Shown piece after piece: positions 1 through 9,700 of a DNA stretch of 64,000 bases. Positions within the stretch are counted from its first letter, which is position 1. Every line of letters begins with the position of its first letter. Below the pieces are notes generated by a model, which was not told the DNA's origin, searched no databases, and saw only the letters and a list, made by a program, of their open reading frames with translations. Made by a program: the position numbers and the translations under genes. Location: the sequence record SRR31156797_326. One strand, written 5' to 3'.

Positions 1-2
1 GC

Positions 3-30
3 GTTGAGACGCACGGCCGTGCGTCTTTAC
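3..30. repeat. REP-like palindrome
   Basis: Perfect 20-bp palindrome AGACGCACGGCCGTGCGTCT at 7-26, in a GTTGAGACG...CGTCTTTAC context resembling GTAG-type REP elements. Confidence 0.55.
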
Positions 31-304
31 GTGTTATTTAGTTATTTGCCTCGCTTCGCTCGGCGTTATTTGCGATGCGCGCGTGATTTGTGGTTATTTG
101 TTGTGTTTGTTGTCGGGTTGTCAAGTTATCGTTGTTAAACGCTTTCTCCAGGTATGGTTGTCTGATATTGGTCAAAGAGTTTAACAATGAAAACGTGAGT
201 AAAACGAACTGATAACCATGACAACGCGTAGCGGATAACATAAATGACTGTTGTTTTATCTTGTTAATTACTTAAATGTCCCTTTCCATTTAAAAAATAA
301 TTAC

Positions 305-312
305 TACATTTG
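305..312 (+). promoter_or_regulatory. Bacteroidota -7 promoter element
   Basis: TACATTTG matches TAnnTTTG, about 75 bp upstream of the repressor ATG. Confidence 0.5.
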
Positions 313-386
313 ACCATTATTTAATCATATTTGCGTTTACAATATAATCAAACAGGATGTTTTAAACAAATAATTGTTGATAACTT

Positions 387-1199
387 ATGCATTTCGGAAC
401 GAACATTAGAATATTGCGCAAGCGCAAAGGCCGTACTCAGGGCGACGTGGCCACAGCGCTAGGGATCAATCGATCGACCTACAACAACTACGAAAACCAG
501 ATTGCCCGTCCGGGGATAGATGCGCTGGTGGCATTTTCGGAGTATTTCGGCATTGCCATCGATACATTGCTAAAAGTGGACCTGGGTAAGCTTTCGGAAA
601 GCCAGTTTTCTCAGCTCGAAAAAGGCTACGATGTATACATCCGCGGGAGTAACCTGCGCGTGCTGGCCACCACTGTTGATCAGGCCAATGAGGAAAATAT
701 CGAGCTGGTGTCGGAGAAAGCCAAGGCCGGCTACACCAATGGTTTTGCCGATCCGGAATTCATCCGTATCCTACCCACGTTTAAACTACCGTTTTTATCC
801 AAAGAGAAAAAATACCGCACCTTTCAGATCAATGGCGACTCGATGCTGCCCATTCCGCATGGATCGTATGTAACGGGCGAATTTATCCAGAACTGGGAAT
901 TCATCCGCAACGGTGAGGCTTGCATTGTGCTTACCCTCAACGAAGGCGTACTTTTTAAGGTGGTGGAAAATTTAATTGAAGAAAATGGTATGTTGCGGTT
1001 GCACTCGCTCAACACGGTTTATGTGCCTTACAGCATTCATGTAAGTGAGATCAGGGAAGTGTGGAAGTTTACCAATTTTATCAGCTCAGAGATGCCCGAA
1101 GGCCGCACTCCCGAAAACGAAATTGTGGAAAGCATCCGCGAGATAAAAAAGGATGTGAAGGGGATAAACGAGCATTTGAAGAAGTTGCCGGAAGGATGA
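387..1199 (+). CDS. XRE-HTH + S24 peptidase transcriptional repressor (LexA/CI-like)
   Basis: N-terminal HTH (LRKRKGRTQGDVATALGINRSTYNNYE), Ala-Gly cleavage site (KAKAGY), catalytic Ser (GDSMLP) and Lys (VLFK), C-terminal heptad extension. Confidence 0.9.
   Translation: MHFGTNIRILRKRKGRTQGDVATALGINRSTYNNYENQIARPGIDALVAFSEYFGIAIDTLLKVDLGKLSESQFSQLEKGYDVYIRGSNLRVLATTVDQANEENIELVSEKAKAGYTNGFADPEFIRILPTFKLPFLSKEKKYRTFQINGDSMLPIPHGSYVTGEFIQNWEFIRNGEACIVLTLNEGVLFKVVENLIEENGMLRLHSLNTVYVPYSIHVSEIREVWKFTNFISSEMPEGRTPENEIVESIREIKKDVKGINEHLKKLPEG
1092..1193 (+). repeat. Direct repeat copy 1 (3' end of repressor gene)
   Basis: 85/102 nt identical, by manual count, to 1758-1859. Confidence 0.9.
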
Positions 1200-1232
1200 A
1201 AAATTGTTGGGGTATTTTTTCGTTTTAAAAAC

Positions 1233-1240
1233 TAACTTTG
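1233..1240 (+). promoter_or_regulatory. Bacteroidota -7 promoter element for TA operon
   Basis: TAACTTTG, 19 bp upstream of the antitoxin ATG. Confidence 0.6.
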
Positions 1241-1258
1241 TATTCAAAATTTTAAGAG

Positions 1259-1465
1259 ATGACTTTTCAACCACAAATAATTAAAGATGCTGATGGCAAG
1301 GACATTGGTGTATTCATTCCCAAAAGAGATTATGACCAAATAATGGAGATGCTCGAGGAGTTTGAAGATACAAAAGATTTTGATGCGGTTAAGAGAAATA
1401 GCGAACAAGCAATACCTGTAGAACAAGCTTTTAGGGAAATTGAAGAAAATCGCCGTGACTTATAA
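1259..1465 (+). CDS. Type II antitoxin (RelB-like, acidic)
   Basis: Small acidic 68-aa ORF directly upstream of and overlapping a RelE toxin. Confidence 0.75.
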   Translation: MTFQPQIIKDADGKDIGVFIPKRDYDQIMEMLEEFEDTKDFDAVKRNSEQAIPVEQAFREIEENRRDL

Positions 1466-1712
1466 GTTGTTGATCTTAAAAAGTGCACAAAAGCAAATTT
1501 CCAAATTGCCGGCGAGAGACTATCGTAAAGTAAAGCAGGTAATTTTAGATTTAGCCAATAATCCAAGGCCGGTGCATTGCAGCAAGCTGAAATATCGTGA
1601 TGGCTATAGAATCCGGCAAGGAGATTACAGGATAATTTACCAGGTTCAGGACAATATTTTAACAGTACTTGTATTGAAGATTGGCCACCGAAAAGATATT
1701 TACCGCGATTAG
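1455..1712 (+). CDS. RelE/StbE family type II toxin
   Basis: Basic protein with YRIRQGDYRIIY and IGHRKDIY motifs; likely GTG start at 1455 (MTYKL) overlapping the antitoxin end. Confidence 0.9.
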   Translation: MTYKLLILKSAQKQISKLPARDYRKVKQVILDLANNPRPVHCSKLKYRDGYRIRQGDYRIIYQVQDNILTVLVLKIGHRKDIYRD

Positions 1713-1757
1713 ATTTTGATTTCATTTATTGGTTTTTCTTTTTCCCATTGTGCTAAA

Positions 1758-1874
1758 ATGCCCGAAGCCCGCCCACAGGAAAACGAGATCGTGGAAAGTA
1801 TCCGCGAAATTAAAAAGGATGTGAAGGAGATTAATGAGCGGTTGAAGGGGTTGCCGGAAGTGGATATTTTTTAA
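1758..1874 (+). repeat. Direct repeat copy 2; intact 38-aa mini-ORF homologous to the repressor C-terminus
   Basis: Translates to MPEARPQENEIVESIREIKKDVKEINERLKGLPEVDIF*; 28/34 aa identical to the repressor tail; expression unproven. Confidence 0.8.
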
Positions 1875-1877
1875 CAC

Positions 1878-3563
1878 CTACAGCCCCGTATTCTCAACCC
1901 TGGCAATATACGCGAAAGCTGTATTGATTTTGATCCTGTCGCCGCGATTTAATTCAAGCCGCTGTACCCGACCACTGGGACGGATAATTTGCTTTGTGCC
2001 GTTGACCTCAACCTCGATGGGGATTTTGAAATCATCACCCATGTTTGCCCACTTGTATTTGAGGGTGTTTTTTCCGGTTGCCGGATTTCGGGTAAAACTG
2101 AAATCCAATTGCGGACATGCCCTGTTGAAAAGATAAGCATCAAAAAACCAGCTATAATCACTGCCTGTCTTTTCGTTTACGAGGTTCATAAAATCGTTGT
2201 TGGTGGCGATGCTGTATTTGTGATCTTGGTAAAAGGTTTTGATGATGTCCATAAACACGCTGTCGTTGTTGATGGTGTTTCGCAGGGTGTGCAGCATATT
2301 TGCTCCTTTGAAATATACATCCGCATCTTTTTTGTGCCAGAAGTTCAGATCGTATGGTCCGATGACCGGGTATTCATTTTGCACCATATAGCTGTACCAT
2401 TTCAGATGCTCCAGGTACATATCATAGCCATAAACGTGCTCCAGGAATAGCGCTTCGCTGTACGTGGCAAAACCTTCGTGCAGCCAGATTTCGGCATAGT
2501 CGAAAGCCGAAACGCTATTGCCCCACCATTCATGGGCGGCCTCGTGCAGGATGATGTGGTCATAATCGTAATTGGTTTCGTTTTCGTAACCGTTGCCATA
2601 TGCTATCGCCGACTGGTGCTCCATCCCTGCATACGGACTCTCAACCAGTTTAAAGCCATCACGCCACCAGGGGTATTCCCCAAAGGCCTCCTCAAAAAAC
2701 CTGATAATTTCTATGGATTGCTCAAAATGTGTTTTGGCGGTTTCCAGGTTTTCAGGAAGTACATAAAAATCAAGGTAAAGCGTTGAGTTGCCCTTTTCAT
2801 AGGGCAATTGAAAATGTTCGAAGTTCCCGGCGTAAAAAGTTACATTGTAGGTATTGATGCAATAGGACACCTTCCAGGTAAATGTTTCCTTCCCGTTTTC
2901 AACTTTTCGGTTTTTCAGCCTGCCGTTGCTCACACAAAACAGGCCCTCGGGAATGGTAAAATGCATAAGGGTGCTATCGGGTTCATCGTACAGATGATCT
3001 TTTACCGGCCACCAGGCACTGGCGCCCAGGCCTTCGCAAGCCACCCCAACCCAGGGTTCACCATTTTCGGTTTCATCCCAAACCAGACCGCCTTCCCAGG
3101 GCGGATCTTTTGTCGGCATTGCCTTGCCATTGTAAAAGGTTCTGATTTTGGTTTGCCTGCCTTTTTTAAGGGGTTCCGCAAGGGTGACAATAACCGATTT
3201 CTTTTCCCGATTAAATTCCAGCGGATGCCCATCCTGCATTATAGAAGTTATCTTATAATTTTTGCGCAGGTCAATCTGCACAATATTCAGATCTTCCAAC
3301 GCTTCGAAATGCATATCCACCCAGCCATTCAGCCTTTTCTTGTCGATGTCAACATCGATATTGATTTCGTAAAAGAAAACATCGTTGTTTTTGCGGTATT
3401 CGCCATAGCTGCCAAACACATAATCGGCATCACTGAACTTTGGATATTTCCCTGGTTCTTCAGGGGTTTTGTGAGCAGTATTGAGTTGGTATTCTTCAGT
3501 TTTACAAGCAAATAAAATCAACAACACCAACAGGGATATAAACCATATTTTTTTTGTATGCAT
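1878..3563 (-). CDS. M1 family zinc aminopeptidase, lipoprotein
   Basis: AGMEH (GAMEN-like), HEAAH...E zinc motif (LHEGFATYSE), lipobox LFAC followed by KTEE. Confidence 0.9.
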   Translation of the reverse strand: MHTKKIWFISLLVLLILFACKTEEYQLNTAHKTPEEPGKYPKFSDADYVFGSYGEYRKNNDVFFYEINIDVDIDKKRLNGWVDMHFEALEDLNIVQIDLRKNYKITSIMQDGHPLEFNREKKSVIVTLAEPLKKGRQTKIRTFYNGKAMPTKDPPWEGGLVWDETENGEPWVGVACEGLGASAWWPVKDHLYDEPDSTLMHFTIPEGLFCVSNGRLKNRKVENGKETFTWKVSYCINTYNVTFYAGNFEHFQLPYEKGNSTLYLDFYVLPENLETAKTHFEQSIEIIRFFEEAFGEYPWWRDGFKLVESPYAGMEHQSAIAYGNGYENETNYDYDHIILHEAAHEWWGNSVSAFDYAEIWLHEGFATYSEALFLEHVYGYDMYLEHLKWYSYMVQNEYPVIGPYDLNFWHKKDADVYFKGANMLHTLRNTINNDSVFMDIIKTFYQDHKYSIATNNDFMNLVNEKTGSDYSWFFDAYLFNRACPQLDFSFTRNPATGKNTLKYKWANMGDDFKIPIEVEVNGTKQIIRPSGRVQRLELNRGDRIKINTAFAYIARVENTGL

Positions 3564-3576
3564 GCCAGGGAAGGTT

Positions 3577-4953
3577 TTAGTATTTCATGATTAGCATTGA
3601 TTCTTCAATGTTTTCTTCATCACATCCAAGTACCTGGTGAACGATCATGGCATTTTTGTGGTCTTCAGCCTTCCCAAGCTTTTCGAAACATGTGCTTTGA
3701 AGCTGATAAACCTCACACCCACAGGGGGCATTTTCCTGGATAACCTTCAGGTCTTTCAGTGCTCCGGCATAATCTGCATTTTTCATGTATGCCATTGCCC
3801 GCATTCGGTACTCGCCATAAATTGAATCCTGCGCAATGGATGCTGAGGCATAATCTATCACAGCGTCATAATTGCCCAATTGATAATCACACCTTGCAAC
3901 CCTGTAATCCACATCCACCTCTTCATCAGTATCCCGGCAATTCAGGAAATTTGTTTTTGCCTCTGCATATTGGCCCATATTATAATGGCACATGGCAAGA
4001 TACTGGAATTCGCTTTCCTCTGCTGAAACCTTTTCATTGTATGCTGAAAGGTTTACAAGCGCATCTTCATAATTTTCAAGTTGAAACTGATAGTAGCCCA
4101 TATTGAACCAAACATCGGTATCTTCAGGGTCTATTTCCATGGCATCTTTCAGTACGATGATAGCTGTATCGTATTCTTCCAGTGTGCCCTTGATGTATGC
4201 CAGATTTTTATAATACTGCAAATATTCAGGTTCCATTTCAATCGCGATTTTTATATGTTTACACGCTTCATCGTACCTTGAAGAATAGAAAAAATATCTG
4301 CCTTTTGTGTTGTAGAGACTTGCGCTGTCGGGGGTTAACGTCAATGCCTGATCGATGGCTTCAATGGCTGCATCATATTGCTCGAGCCCTTCATAAGCCA
4401 ATGCCAGGTTTTGGTAGATTGTTGTTGACTCTGGGTTTAACTCCAGTGCGTTTTTAAAATAGGGGAGTGCTTCCTGGAAGTTTTCCTGGTAATAATAGCA
4501 CAGCCCAACATTATTGTAGAAATCCGCATCCCTGGCTTCTATTTCTACTTTTACGTATTCTTCAAGGGCAAGTGCATATTCCTCAGCATTAAAATAATCG
4601 TTGCCGGTTTGGTAATGCTCACTGGTGGATGCTTCTATCATATCAAACATAATTTCCTGTATTGTGGGACAGTTGAGTCCCAATTTCACCCCCACTTTCT
4701 CCATTAATGATTGTACCACCTGTTCTGCATTTTCTCCGTCAAGACTACCAAATTCTTTTTCAATTTTTTTGCTGTATTTCGACATGGCTTCCAGGGCACA
4801 CTTTCCCATCTCCTCCTCCGGGTTCATCAATACCAGGGTTTTGTTTTTCTCCAGGCATTCACAGGTGAGATCTGCAATTTTATCGATGTATTTTTGGCCG
4901 TAGGCCAGGTTTATGGTCAACAGGATCAGGAAAATTACTGTAATTTTTTTCAT
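3577..4953 (-). CDS. Secreted tetratricopeptide repeat protein
   Basis: Signal peptide and many TPR units (e.g. FYNNVGLCYY..ALELNP). Confidence 0.85.
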   Translation of the reverse strand: MKKITVIFLILLTINLAYGQKYIDKIADLTCECLEKNKTLVLMNPEEEMGKCALEAMSKYSKKIEKEFGSLDGENAEQVVQSLMEKVGVKLGLNCPTIQEIMFDMIEASTSEHYQTGNDYFNAEEYALALEEYVKVEIEARDADFYNNVGLCYYYQENFQEALPYFKNALELNPESTTIYQNLALAYEGLEQYDAAIEAIDQALTLTPDSASLYNTKGRYFFYSSRYDEACKHIKIAIEMEPEYLQYYKNLAYIKGTLEEYDTAIIVLKDAMEIDPEDTDVWFNMGYYQFQLENYEDALVNLSAYNEKVSAEESEFQYLAMCHYNMGQYAEAKTNFLNCRDTDEEVDVDYRVARCDYQLGNYDAVIDYASASIAQDSIYGEYRMRAMAYMKNADYAGALKDLKVIQENAPCGCEVYQLQSTCFEKLGKAEDHKNAMIVHQVLGCDEENIEESMLIMKY

Positions 4954-5105
4954 GTTTTTTGGGTTTCTGTTTGTGAATAGTTCAACTATAAGTTTCTGAT
5001 TTCGATATTTTTTTTATGGTAATGAATGGGTTTTTAGTAATGGGATATGGTTTTTGGCTGATCGGTATCCGGGTTTTAAATGCTGCCTGGACGATCTTTT
5101 CCCAA

Positions 5106-5695: not shown

Positions 5696-6526
5696 CTATT
5701 TTTGAAGGTAAGGGTTGGATTGCCCTGTATTACCTGATGCCACATTATTGTTGGATTTATACCGGGCCTCTATTTGATCCATCATAGGTTCAATCAGGAT
5801 TGAAAAATTCCCCAGGACGACATCATATTGTTGGGGATCTTTACCCTTTATAAATAGGCTGGCTGACATATTAGATGCCTCGCTGACTAGTTTTCCATCG
5901 TGGTTAAAAATATACAGTTTGGTTTTTAAGGCAAGGCCGCCATTACCTCCAAAAGGGCCAACACTCTGAACCGACAGTTGTGAAACGGATAGCGCAACAT
6001 AATCCACTTCAAGTTTTTCAGCTATTTTTCCGATAGCATATCTGTAATTAACTTCCTGTTGGAAAAATGGTTGGAACCGCATGCCGCTGAAGGCAAAAGG
6101 ATTAATATCACCATCCGAAATGCTCATCATCGGAAAATTATCATTGCCGGTGTAAAGGTCACCAGGTCTATCCATATCCTTCGCCAGATTCTCGAATTCA
6201 GGATGATTGTGAAGTGTGTCACCGTAAATTACCTGGCAGTGAAAATGGTTTTGAAAACTGCTTGCCAGAATCTCACGGTATTCGTTTGCGTGGGCTTCCT
6301 GGATAATGATAATTTCTTCGGCAATCTCATTTGTTTTTCCATTGAATATACCTGCATCGATAAGCGGAAGTGTGGGCTGGTAAATCCTGTCGATCATCGT
6401 TGAAAGGATGACTACCTTTTTCATTTCTTCGGGTGTATTGCCGTAGTGTGTAACTTTTAGGGATTCGCAACCTGCAAGAGTAAAAACTACAATTGCACAA
6501 AGGATAATTCGTTTTAAATTTTTCAT
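5696..6526 (-). CDS. Hypothetical lipoprotein
   Basis: Lipobox LAGC; 276-aa ORF; no family recognised. Confidence 0.7.
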   Translation of the reverse strand: MKNLKRIILCAIVVFTLAGCESLKVTHYGNTPEEMKKVVILSTMIDRIYQPTLPLIDAGIFNGKTNEIAEEIIIIQEAHANEYREILASSFQNHFHCQVIYGDTLHNHPEFENLAKDMDRPGDLYTGNDNFPMMSISDGDINPFAFSGMRFQPFFQQEVNYRYAIGKIAEKLEVDYVALSVSQLSVQSVGPFGGNGGLALKTKLYIFNHDGKLVSEASNMSASLFIKGKDPQQYDVVLGNFSILIEPMMDQIEARYKSNNNVASGNTGQSNPYLQK

Positions 6527-6572
6527 TGGTTTTTGTTTTGGATAATTTGATTGGTTCCAAATTTGGTTATCA

Positions 6573-6580
6573 CAAATCTA
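6573..6580 (-). promoter_or_regulatory. Bacteroidota -7 promoter element
   Basis: CAAATCTA reads TAGATTTG on the minus strand, upstream of the lipoprotein gene. Confidence 0.5.
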
Positions 6581-6639
6581 CAAAATTTGACCTTAAATAT
6601 GGGACCATCCTCAAAAAATTTTTCATATAGAATTGCAAA

Positions 6640-6664
6640 ACGTTTAATCATGCATATTAAACGT
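6640..6664. promoter_or_regulatory. Dyad (candidate operator) between divergent promoters
   Basis: ACGTTTAAT-N7-ATTAAACGT, perfect 9-bp inverted repeat. Confidence 0.45.
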
Positions 6665-6706
6665 AAATATGTCATGTAATTCCGGCATTTAATGGGCAAA
6701 AAACTT

Positions 6707-6714
6707 TAAATTTG
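6707..6714 (+). promoter_or_regulatory. Bacteroidota -7 promoter element
   Basis: TAAATTTG just upstream of the sensor kinase GTG start. Confidence 0.5.
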
Positions 6715-6727
6715 GCTCAAAAAACAA

Positions 6728-9700
6728 GTGTTCAAAGGCCAATATCTTAGTTTCATACTGTTCCTGCTCCTGTTCTGGGTTAACCTGGCTTCTCAAAACT
6801 TAGTCCGTTACGGCATTTCGGATGGCCTGGCTCATAAGCATGTCCGACACTTTTACCAGGATTCAAAAGGTTTTTTGTGGATTGGCACATGGAATGGGAT
6901 TTCCAGATTTGACGGTCATCATTTTACATCCTTCCAACATGATTCTGGTGATTCAACTTCAATTTTAAACGAAGAGGTAACCTGGATTACCGAAGATAGT
7001 TTGGGGAATATTTGGTCGTTCACAAGAAATGGTATCATGAAATATTCCGGGGGCGACAATTTTACACGGGTTTTTCTTGATGAAACACACAAAAAGGATT
7101 TCAAACCACTGGGTAGCCAAACTCTGGTATTTGATTACAGCGGGACAGGCTGGTTTTTAGAAGAGCAGGGGTTGTTTTCATTTTCCAGTGACCTGAAAAA
7201 AATACGCAGGCTGGGTATTCCCAACATTACTTTTAAAGAAAGCAATGCCATCCTTGCTGATAAAAGTGGATTGTGGATTACCACAATTAATGGCATTTGT
7301 TTTTTTAAATATGAAACGCTGAATCAAAATAATTTCATTACAGAAGAGGCAGCGGACATTTTCATTCTGAACCGGAATTGGAGCCAGGATTTTCCAGGCG
7401 GTTTTTTAAGGAGTATAAATGATCGGCTTTTGGTTCATTATACAAATAAAGGTATTTATGAATTGGATGTTGATGACGGTGAATTGAAACAATTGATAGG
7501 TAAGCACACAGCCGGTGTTGGTAATATAACCGAGTTTCGCAGGTTTTATGAAATTTCACCCGGAATCATTGCATTTGGAAAAGGGCAAAACGGCATGTTG
7601 ATGTTTGATTTAAACAGCAATACATTCATCGATGAGCATCCATTACTTAATTATACCAGCGGATTAGATATTCACGCAATCCTGATGGATAAACAGCACA
7701 ATATTTGGGTAGGCAGCCTGAATGGTGTATTGAAATATTCATGCCCGCAATTAACATTTAAGTCATGGCTATATGATCCGGAAGACACAAATTCGTTATC
7801 CGGCGAAAACCTTACTCATGTGTTTAAGGACGCATACAGACATCTTTGGGTTTCCAGCACCAGTGGAGGTATTGAGAGAATCGATCCTGAATCCGGGTTG
7901 GTTACCAAAATCAGGCTTCCGGATAAATATCATATTTATACCAATCCAAACAGGGGTAATTATATCTATCAGCTGGACAGTAACATGTTTTTGCTTGCCT
8001 ACGACTCTGCCGTATTTAAATATAATCTGAAACAAAATAGTTTTGATTTTGTAATGAAGGTTGACCGTCATGTAAGACAAGTTGCTAAAGATGATGATGG
8101 TAAACTATATATGGTAGCTTCTAACGGGAGGTATATTTTAAATTACAAAAATGAAAAGCTAACTTTAGATAGTGAATTTAACATAGGCCATGAAAAGGCT
8201 CAATATCAGAGTAATTGGGATATTGAGATTTTGGATGACAGAATAATCCTCGGACAAAGAAAGGGGTTAACAATTATCGATAAAAACAACTTTTCTAACG
8301 TTGCTTGTTTTGTGCCTGATGGAGCCAAGGACATACCCTATGTACTTTGTGTTTATCCGGCAAGTAGCGGCCTGGTTTGGATCGGAACCATGCGTGATGG
8401 TATTTATGCCTTCGATATGACGATAAAGGAGTTCGTCAGCCACTTCGACATGAATGATGGATTGATTGATAACTCGGTGAATGCAATTTTTGAAGATAAC
8501 AATGGATATTTATGGGCGAGTACATGGAAAGGCATCGCAAAAGTTATCCCCGAAACAGGCGAAATATATAACTATAGCACAGTGAATGGGCTGCCATTTC
8601 CTGAATTTAATACCGAAGTATATTGTAGGGATGACGACGGGAATATATATTTTGGCGGACTTGGTGGGGTAATTGAAATGCATCCCAGGACGTTTGTAAA
8701 TTTTGAAACACCCAATGATTTAAAAATTATAGAAGTTCATGCCTGGAATAAACTTTTACCCCTTACATATCCTTTGGGTAATGATGAACAGGTAAAATTG
8801 GAATTTGAACAAAATGATTTTTCGGTTTTTTTTAGCAGTTTTGATTTCAGACATGCCCATGAAAGGCGGTACCGTTATAAGCTCAATGGCTATGACAGCA
8901 AATGGCGTCAATTGACCAACAACGATTTTGCTGCACGGTATGCCAATGTACCGTCGGGTTCGTACACACTTACCATCGGGTCAACGTACCAGAACTGGCC
9001 TTGGGTGGGCAAACAAACCAACCTGAAGATCAGCATAAAACCACCTCCGGTTTATAAACGTCAAAGCTTTCTGGTAGCCATTTTAATCATATTGGGCCTG
9101 TCATTAACCACCATAATAATTTTAAGGTTGCGAAATAAAAATATGCAAAAAGAGGTGATGATAACCAGGTTGGAAAAAGAATCAAACCTGGCAAAACTCA
9201 ACTTCCTGAAAAGCCAGATGAACCCGCATTTTTATTTCAACACCCTTAATGCGATTAACAGTTTTGTGTTGAAACATGAAATAAGGGAAGCCAATATCTA
9301 CCTGACCAAATTCGCCAAGCTGATGCGTGAAGTTCTGGATAATTCTCAAAAGGAGTTTGTGAAAATAGCTGACGAAAAAGCCGTACTTGAGAAATACCTG
9401 GCCTTGCAGCAGTTGCGCTTTCAGAATTTATTTGATTATGAAATTAACGTAGATCAGGAGGTGGAGGATAAGGAGATACCTCCCATGTTTTTGCAGCCAT
9501 TCATCGAAAACTCTGTTGAATATGCTTTTGTTGATATGCAGGTAAAAGGTTGGCTTACAATAAGCTTTAATCTGGATGGAGAGCAAATTATTTGTTCTGT
9601 CATCGACAATGGCATAGGCATAGACCGCTCGCAACAGATCAAGCGTCGCTCCAAAAGATCATCAACAGCTATAAAAAACATTTTTAAGCGCATTTACATG

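Follow-up and report, generated by a model that had tools for sequence, protein, structure and literature searches.

Islands at the ends of tRNA and tmRNA genes often include toxin-antitoxin (TA) pairs in their cargo. Dominant-negative small proteins made of the oligomerisation parts of larger proteins are represented by the plant microProteins and by the small C-terminal Rpn proteins of E. coli, cases which are conserved genes or internal translation starts. For Rhs-type loci, C-terminal displacement and orphan modules were reportedly described by Jackson et al. in 2009. The excerpts of two papers used here describe C-terminal displacement and "orphan" modules for Rhs, CdiA and T6SS effector loci (PMC3150448, PMC5361080). 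According to the excerpt of another paper, e14 is a 15-kb cryptic prophage of E. coli K-12 with its own site-specific recombination system; icd extends into e14, the C-terminal pseudogene icdC lies at the prophage's opposite end, and excision of e14 rebuilds icd (PMC13626634). The original icd/e14 paper, as referenced there, is that of Hill, Gray and Brody 1989 (PMC13626634).

In this study, we investigated a 38-codon open reading frame (ORF) in a stretch of 64,000 nucleotides of DNA, which we call the window. The ORF lies beyond a RelE/ParE-type TA pair and resembles the 3' end of the repressor gene that precedes the pair (Table 1). We conclude that it is probably the original tail of the repressor, displaced by a TA block that brought a replacement tail, and a by-product of that event rather than a dedicated gene.

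Table 1. Positions of the repressor gene, the TA block and their neighbours in the window
Feature	Position	Strand	Content or basis
Repressor gene, 270 aa	387..1199	+	XRE-type HTH, S24 LexA-like peptidase domain, linker, C-terminal amphipathic helix
Probable inserted block, 666 bp	1092..1757	+	Surrogate repressor tail, AT-rich spacer, antitoxin, toxin, 45-nt right end
Left repeat copy, the present in-gene tail (MPEGRTPENE..INEHLKKLPEG)	1092..1194	+	Probably imported
Antitoxin candidate, 68 aa	1259..1465	+	Weak Pfam matches; upstream of toxin gene, overlapping
RelE/ParE-superfamily toxin, 85 aa from GTG 1455; alternative start TTG 1440	1455..1712	+	Pfam ParE_toxin
Right end of block, GC 0.24	1713..1757	+	No relation to repressor sequence
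38-codon ORF, probable displaced native 3' end of repressor gene	1758..1874	+	Tail comparison with relatives
M1-family peptidase gene, convergent	1878..3563	-	Pfam Peptidase_M1, 74.2 bits; ORF list

The repressor, the direct repeat and the cargo

The repressor matches Pfam HTH_3 (48.6 bits) and Peptidase_S24 (31 bits), both above the cut-offs, and its length is usual for its family (264-275 aa in most relatives). It has 5616 homologues of similar length, nearly all from Bacteroidota genomes or metagenomes, which some sources label LexA family or XRE family regulator. S152 (in GDSM) and K191 are invariant across 52 sequences and are the putative catalytic dyad of a predicted self-cleavage. A profile of the last 75 residues finds the tail in 19/23 sampled genomes of the family, in 196/401 of the order and in 282/401 of the class (a tally that includes G597 and G513, flagged as unpublished and used for no other claim). 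In many Bacteroidales, a same-strand gene for a protein of 447-454 aa lies directly 3' of the repressor gene (L011:6802-8142 and 15-20 loci). The one such neighbour that was scanned carries an RNase_T (DnaQ-like) exonuclease domain and a GIY-YIG domain, which suggests an SOS-type operon. At other loci the downstream neighbour differs (SPFH, DnaB, AAA ATPase). Because of its wide spread among genomes and this recurrent neighbour gene, we regard the repressor as a conserved chromosomal XRE-HTH and S24 regulator of Bacteroidales and not as a phage repressor. Searches of viral contigs found no repressor tail, either by protein pattern or by a degenerate DNA pattern for ENEIVESIREI. In a Lentimicrobiaceae metagenome-assembled genome (MAG), overlapping direct repeats (33-53 nt, 77-91% identity) stand right after the repressor stop (L003:6806-6991), apparently as a short tandem array.

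Comparison of homologues places the tail (..EMPE..ENEIVESIREIKKDVKGINERL..) within the repressor family. AlphaFold2 (AF2) predicts a helix at residues 242-265 with a pLDDT of about 56-69, preceded by a low-confidence linker at 233-241; that this helix forms a C-terminal coiled coil and serves oligomerisation is putative. Among solved structures, relatives were found for the HTH domain only, and the tail had no match.

The two tails form a direct repeat (1092-1194 / 1758-1860) of 103 nt with 83% identity and a start-to-start spacing of 666, as reported by a repeat finder; blastn within the first 12 kb of the window gives the pair an E value of 5.8e-27. What the initial annotation had read from the letters withstood our recount: homology starting at an ATG after AAA, an intact frame, and substitutions that spare the heptad core. 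Pairwise identity begins at the ATG of repressor codon 236, which corresponds to position 1758, and the bases upstream are unrelated. The ORF is open over 38 codons and a stop, and its frame is also open from a TTG at 1716, which would give 52 aa. Over 34 codons, the copies differ by 7 synonymous and 6 non-synonymous changes (17/102 nt), the latter at positions 4, 6, 7, 24, 28 and 31, and all of I11, I15, I18, V22, I25, L29 and L32 are the same in both. The homology stops 5 nt short of the repressor stop, the in-gene tail ending in ..LPEG* and the copy in ..LPEVDIF*. The M1 peptidase stop lies 3 nt past the stop of the copy, and we take this gene as the native right flank.

Several smaller features of the region were recorded. 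The TAG stop of the toxin gene (1710-1712) is in frame with the 38-codon ORF, with 15 sense codons between them, and read-through would fuse the toxin to the displaced helix; by chance, the frames would coincide in 1 of 3 cases. Simple scans for promoters and terminators gave no signal above chance around the ORF, with no terminator-like site in the interval from the toxin gene to the ORF, and Rfam had no match over positions 1-4000 of the window. At its very start, the window holds a 15-nt perfect-neighbour hairpin (2-16 / 17-31), followed by several copies of TTATTTG, seen by eye, 5' of the repressor gene (region 1-140). A search of public runs found the stretch in no run besides the likely source sample, whose contigs cover hardly any of it and include no junction across 1092/1758. 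In the likely source run, X1, a 173-nt contig with a depth of 2.2 spans window positions 1031-1165, over the repressor's 3' end. It departs from the window by 18 differences, among them G>C at 1102 and T>C at 1109, which points to a second strain in this sample whose tail variant is a different one.

The cargo between the tails consists of two TA genes only, and no recombinase or integrase was found in the 666-bp block. The toxin matches Pfam ParE_toxin (PF05016) at 48.6 bits against a cut-off of 23 and NCBIfam RelE_StbE at 25.4 bits, under the cut-off of 27.9. The antitoxin candidate matches Pfam RelB-like (20 bits) and PhdYeFM_antitox (16.9 bits), both under their cut-offs, and has no NCBIfam match; gene order and the overlap of the two genes fit a type II pair. 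GC content is 0.22-0.38 in the TA genes and both spacers, compared with 0.48 in the repressor gene and 0.46 in the 38-codon copy. The TA pair and its spacers are thus compositionally foreign, AT-rich DNA. With 80 loci kept from each of two collections, no relative of the toxin exceeds 56% identity, and the relatives come from many phyla. None of the 160 kept loci contains the repressor gene, and the 80 from the metagenome collection include no same-locus relative.

We also compared the sequence upstream of the antitoxin with that downstream of the toxin in 73 of the toxin-relative loci (L031-L110, genome_contigs). Three were set aside as self-match artefacts, and 21 of the remaining 70 have direct repeats (28-1314 nt) on both sides of the TA pair, a count that comes without a shuffled control. 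In eight loci (L032, L033, L042, L044, L059, L067, L075 and L091) the repeats bracket the pair closely; in L092, L044 and L090 they read like tRNA 3' ends beside integrase-like ORFs. A Bacteroides MAG (L042:3552-5458) carries three copies of a piece of ~100 nt that covers the start of an ssb-like gene (~12 codons) together with the region upstream of it (3552-3661, 4251-4360 and 4993-5080; 88% and ~80% identity). The first and second copies each precede one TA pair, and the third precedes the intact ssb-like gene, an arrangement that looks like a 5'-end counterpart of the repressor-tail displacement. In a Bacteroidetes MAG (L047:243-4308), a 1.3-kb direct repeat (243-1545 / 3005-4308, 84% identical) flanks a related TA pair.

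Origin of the two tails

The body of the repressor and its present tail have different closest relatives. The body is 94-97% identical to those of P0001-P0003 (6/235 residues differ from P0001, the closest relative, and 13/235 from P0003), and the tail differs from that of P0001 at 6/31 residues (Fisher p = 9e-4). When the 29 tail residues that can be aligned are counted, four of the in-gene tail depart from P0001 and likewise four from P0003, compared with two and one, respectively, for the 38-codon copy. The in-gene tail is closest to the tails of P0005, P0006 and P0010 (2/29), whose bodies differ at 30-35/235 residues. At the DNA level, the nearest sequence to the in-gene tail is that of L003 (89.6% over 96 nt), and the nearest to the copy is the in-gene tail of L024, whose genome is G003 (89.8% over 88 nt); copy and G003 in-gene tail differ by 7 synonymous and 2 non-synonymous changes in 29 codons. 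The window's repressor is P0001-like to at least residue 223 and P0005-type from residue 239, so that the switch between body and tail falls between residues 223 and 239 and therefore coincides with the start of the repeat, an argument made from protein sequences only and from few informative tail sites (residues 239, 241, 242 and 263). That repressor tails vary more than bodies also weakens this argument. It is the copy, and not the in-gene tail, that agrees with the closest relatives of the body, which makes the copy look native. Our searches found no genome with the empty site, that is, a repressor ending in ..LPEVDIF beside the M1 peptidase gene; none of 80 loci with relatives of the M1 peptidase has the repressor, and the M1 orthologues are at most 50% identical.

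Two other genomes carry the same kind of displacement. In another MAG (L016), a 60%-identical orthologue of the repressor (6001..6801) is followed by a VapB-like ORF, a PIN toxin gene and a 250-nt, 93% copy of the repressor's own 3' end (6587-6834 vs 7923-8172), which starts at residue ~196; in the core 150 nt the two copies differ at 2 positions only. In G003, whose repressor is 86% identical, a 7.9-kb insert follows the repressor gene and contains a PD-(D/E)XK transposase-family gene, an HTH gene, lipoprotein-like genes and a Tlde1-domain gene. Past the insert come a 122-nt, 81% copy of the tail, from residue ~224, and a 246-nt, 86% copy of the hicB gene located after the repressor. Scans of 10 ORFs of the G003 insert and 5 of the L016 insert found no integrase families. 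The displaced copies start at residues ~196 (L016), ~224 (G003) and 236 (window), and all are open through the tail part (71, 47 and 38 aa). Tail types are swapped between G003 and the window: the G003 gene carries the RPQ type and its displaced copy RTP, and the window's gene carries RTP and its displaced copy RPQ. The architecture of the window arose independently in L016 and in G003. The PF12784 PD-(D/E)XK "transposase" gene of G003 (L197:2694-3626, 87.7 bits) sits where the insert ends, and 42 nt separate it from the displaced tail.

Outside the close clade of the window, displaced tails are rare. A degenerate DNA pattern for ENEIVESIREI occurs at four places in species-representative genomes, namely, L003, L005 and both G003 copies; in the close clade that shares the pattern, a displaced tail is present in two of four genomes (the window and G003, not L003 and L005). 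One of the 19 family-level genomes with the repressor has a displaced tail (G003), and none of the 196 order-level genomes does (order sample, n = 401); 8 of these 196 have a second tail match, in each case a full-length or degenerate paralogue that lies on a different contig or at a distance of over 100 kb. In the class sample, 53 genomes had at least two matches; 13 of them, with a strong best match and a second match that was not visible, were searched again, and none has a short second match next to the repressor. A 63-aa repressor fragment lies on a separate contig of G596, from the class sample. Several apparent cases were discarded: in G407 a contig end cuts the tail-only match, one of the two G406 matches (contig C41) is a gene interrupted by N, the contig of P0121 is a repressor gene split by an N run, and G632 and G682 have frameshifted or degenerate repressor genes. 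An 11-nt word, GATTTTGATTT, noticed by eye 5' of the displaced copies of the window and G003, was also set aside as a possible chance match in AT-rich DNA.

The initial annotation had named a displaced old 3' end as its alternative reading, and this is the reading favoured by the grouping of the copy with the tails of the closest relatives, by the AT-rich foreign block and by the recurrence in two genomes. We infer the following course of events. The block of 666 bp (1092-1757) would have inserted at codon 236 of the gene, where a flexible linker joins the S24 domain to the C-terminal helix. Its first part would be a homologous tail of a related lineage that replaces the old one, and the RelE/ParE-type TA pair would come next. 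Because the block starts with such a tail, the repressor stays intact. The old tail would have been shifted 666 bp downstream, still beside its native neighbour, the M1 peptidase gene. The conservative substitutions between the copies would follow from a comparison of two orthologous, once-functional tails, and selection on a free ORF is not required for them. The junction falls inside the low-confidence linker predicted by AF2, the kind of place where a chimeric protein is likeliest to stay functional.

Insertion of the block at a single point is the simplest reading of its structure, and two modes of entry can be considered. The block could have arrived by a Campbell-type single crossover, site-specific or homologous, between the chromosome and a circular DNA that carried tail and cargo, or by a one-sided homologous crossover combined with an illegitimate join, which is called homology-facilitated illegitimate recombination. 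A block that starts with a homologue of the sequence following its insertion point is the product of a single crossover with a circle, and the second mode would need the crossover to land by chance beside the join. At the informative sites, the left copy is all donor type and the right copy all native, which places the crossover no more than about 9 nt from the homology's left edge; random homologous exchange would therefore fit less well than a defined crossover site. L016 and G003 have junctions that differ from that of the window, so there is no single crossover core shared by the three. The last codons (VDIF and the stop) and the M1 flank are contiguous native sequence wherever the crossover fell. 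If the two tails recombined, the TA pair would be lost and a chimeric gene rebuilt, much as happens at icd when e14 excises; selection is expected to act against losing the pair, which would stabilise the arrangement.

Two other histories could have produced the architecture. The polarity might be reversed, with the in-gene tail being native and the downstream copy (to about 1860) having been brought in alongside the TA pair by a Campbell-type crossover at the homology's rightmost edge. A single crossover with a circle does yield the same architecture wherever it falls, and both RTP and RPQ tail types circulate in the family, with G003 arranged opposite to the window. Against this, the tails of P0001-P0003, the relatives with the 94-97% identical bodies, fit the copy (1-2/29) and not the in-gene tail (4/29), so that reversed polarity requires an oddly divergent native tail together with a donor whose tail type is that of the recipient's own relatives. 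We consider it quite unlikely. A tandem duplication of the tail in situ, followed by divergence and by a later insertion of the TA pair between the copies, is highly improbable. Local duplication can generate direct repeats of gene ends, and the near-identity of the L016 copies (2 differences in the core 150 nt) would suit it, but in the window the 17% divergence is patterned as two orthologous alleles that each fit different relatives, the boundary of the repeat is also the boundary of the mosaic, and duplication requires two events where one suffices. Displacement of the native tail by the TA block remains our preferred reading.

The displaced tail as a possible microprotein

The same origin could be combined with a later function. 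The displaced tail may now be kept as a microprotein that is translated from the TA transcript, pairs with the repressor helix and weakens repressor assembly, leading to derepression. This was the main proposal of the initial annotation, for which we found no direct support, and we think it unlikely. Some features of the locus would suit it. The ORF is intact from its ATG, none of its heptad core residues has changed, the stretch that parts it from the toxin gene showed no terminator-like site, and the AF2 model sets the repressor helix apart as a separate element behind a flexible linker. Displaced tails are present in half of the ENEIVESIREI-pattern clade (2/4 genomes, the window and G003), and P0126, a 35-aa protein from a public metagenome, begins at the same Met. 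The other repressor-bearing genomes examined have no stand-alone copy, however, and the only relatives with a stand-alone ORF are the displaced copies of L016 and G003, which do not share a conserved start (residues ~196 and ~224, compared with 236 in the window). Each displaced copy has one unusual residue. In the window this is G24E, at a position where the 15 closest relatives all have G and which is variable across 120 homologues; in P0126 it is E17K, in which K replaces the E of SIREI. P0125 (59 aa) is a fragment in which the helix end is missing; from their sequences, P0125 and P0126 look like further displaced-tail remnants. Conservative substitutions are expected from two orthologous tails in any case. 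The initial annotation had held that arbitrary start positions together with stops or frameshifts in copies elsewhere would speak against a microprotein: the start positions do differ between genomes, and no stops or frameshifts occur within the tail part of any of the copies.

G003 offers the closest look at what becomes of a displaced tail. Its displaced copy keeps the helix part, and the adjoining upstream homology has decayed. In four functional genes, the 12 codons before the Met encode an identical protein sequence (0 non-synonymous, 3-8 synonymous differences). In the displaced copy these codons have 6 non-synonymous changes, including one of a family-invariant Trp, plus a TGA, whereas its 29 helix codons differ from those of L003 by 3 non-synonymous and 6 synonymous changes. 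The contrast between the two parts gives p = 0.011 by Fisher's test, and p = 0.004 when nucleotides are counted (13/36 vs 10/87), in this one case. Such a contrast is the pattern expected from selection on an ORF that starts at the Met, but a chimeric copy or repeated exchange at one crossover site would match it equally well. If exchange recurred at a crossover site near the Met, that would also be the reason why the junction of the window and P0126 both start there. A prediction of the complex between repressor residues 100-270 and the 38-aa peptide scored 0.02 against a mark of 0.34, run without controls, and weighs neither way; a word-index search of small proteins with the 52-aa in-frame ORF returned no candidate. 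A broader scenario can be drawn up in which the linker and tail are a recurrent landing pad for recombinase-less blocks, mostly of TA genes, that carry a surrogate tail, and in which the helix ORF from Met236 is kept, is co-transcribed with the TA genes and titrates the repressor helix; we regard this scenario as distinctly improbable.

Significance and comparison with known systems

Read as the displaced end of the repressor gene, the ORF makes the window a small and clean illustration of a conserved gene that survives an insertion by means of a spare end supplied by the incoming DNA, and it indicates that a TA pair by itself, without a recombinase, can occupy such a site. TA genes stand beside the repressor tail in all three events (RelE/ParE-type in the window, VapB-like/PIN in L016 and hicB in G003), which bears on how chromosomal TA pairs move and why they persist. 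Should the helix prove to be expressed and to bind the repressor, an insertion scar would have given rise to a dominant-negative microprotein, a rare case among bacteria.

Of the tRNA- and tmRNA-end islands, the locus shares the direct repeats of a conserved gene's 3' end that bracket foreign cargo. Unlike in those islands, the target encodes a protein, the repeat consists of diverged coding sequence (103 nt), and an integrase is absent. The likeness to plant microProteins and Rpn proteins would hold if the ORF is expressed, as a free interaction helix that titrates the full-length protein, with the difference that here the ORF is an insertion scar. As in the Rhs and CdiA loci, to the extent that the excerpts cited above describe them, a cassette with a homologous 5' stretch appears to have swapped the C-terminal end, the old end persists alone downstream, and events recur at the same gene. 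In those loci, however, a toxin tip is displaced together with its immunity gene, and the displacement serves diversification, whereas the displaced part in the window is a conserved repressor helix and the cargo an unrelated TA pair.

The closest counterparts are C-terminal displacement at Rhs and CdiA genes and the icd/icdC pair at e14, the latter judged by the excerpt cited for it. At e14 as in the window, the insert brings a homologous replacement 3' end that leaves the host gene intact, the original C-terminal fragment persists at the element's far end as a short homologous piece, and the differences between the two ends are conservative. Unlike e14, the block in the window measures 666 bp and holds a TA pair only, without a recombinase. 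Its host gene is a regulator and not a metabolic enzyme like icd, and the event is known here from sequence, with excision seen for e14 only. The structure in the window is most likely a known kind of scar, of the icd/icdC type, and not a proven new gene.
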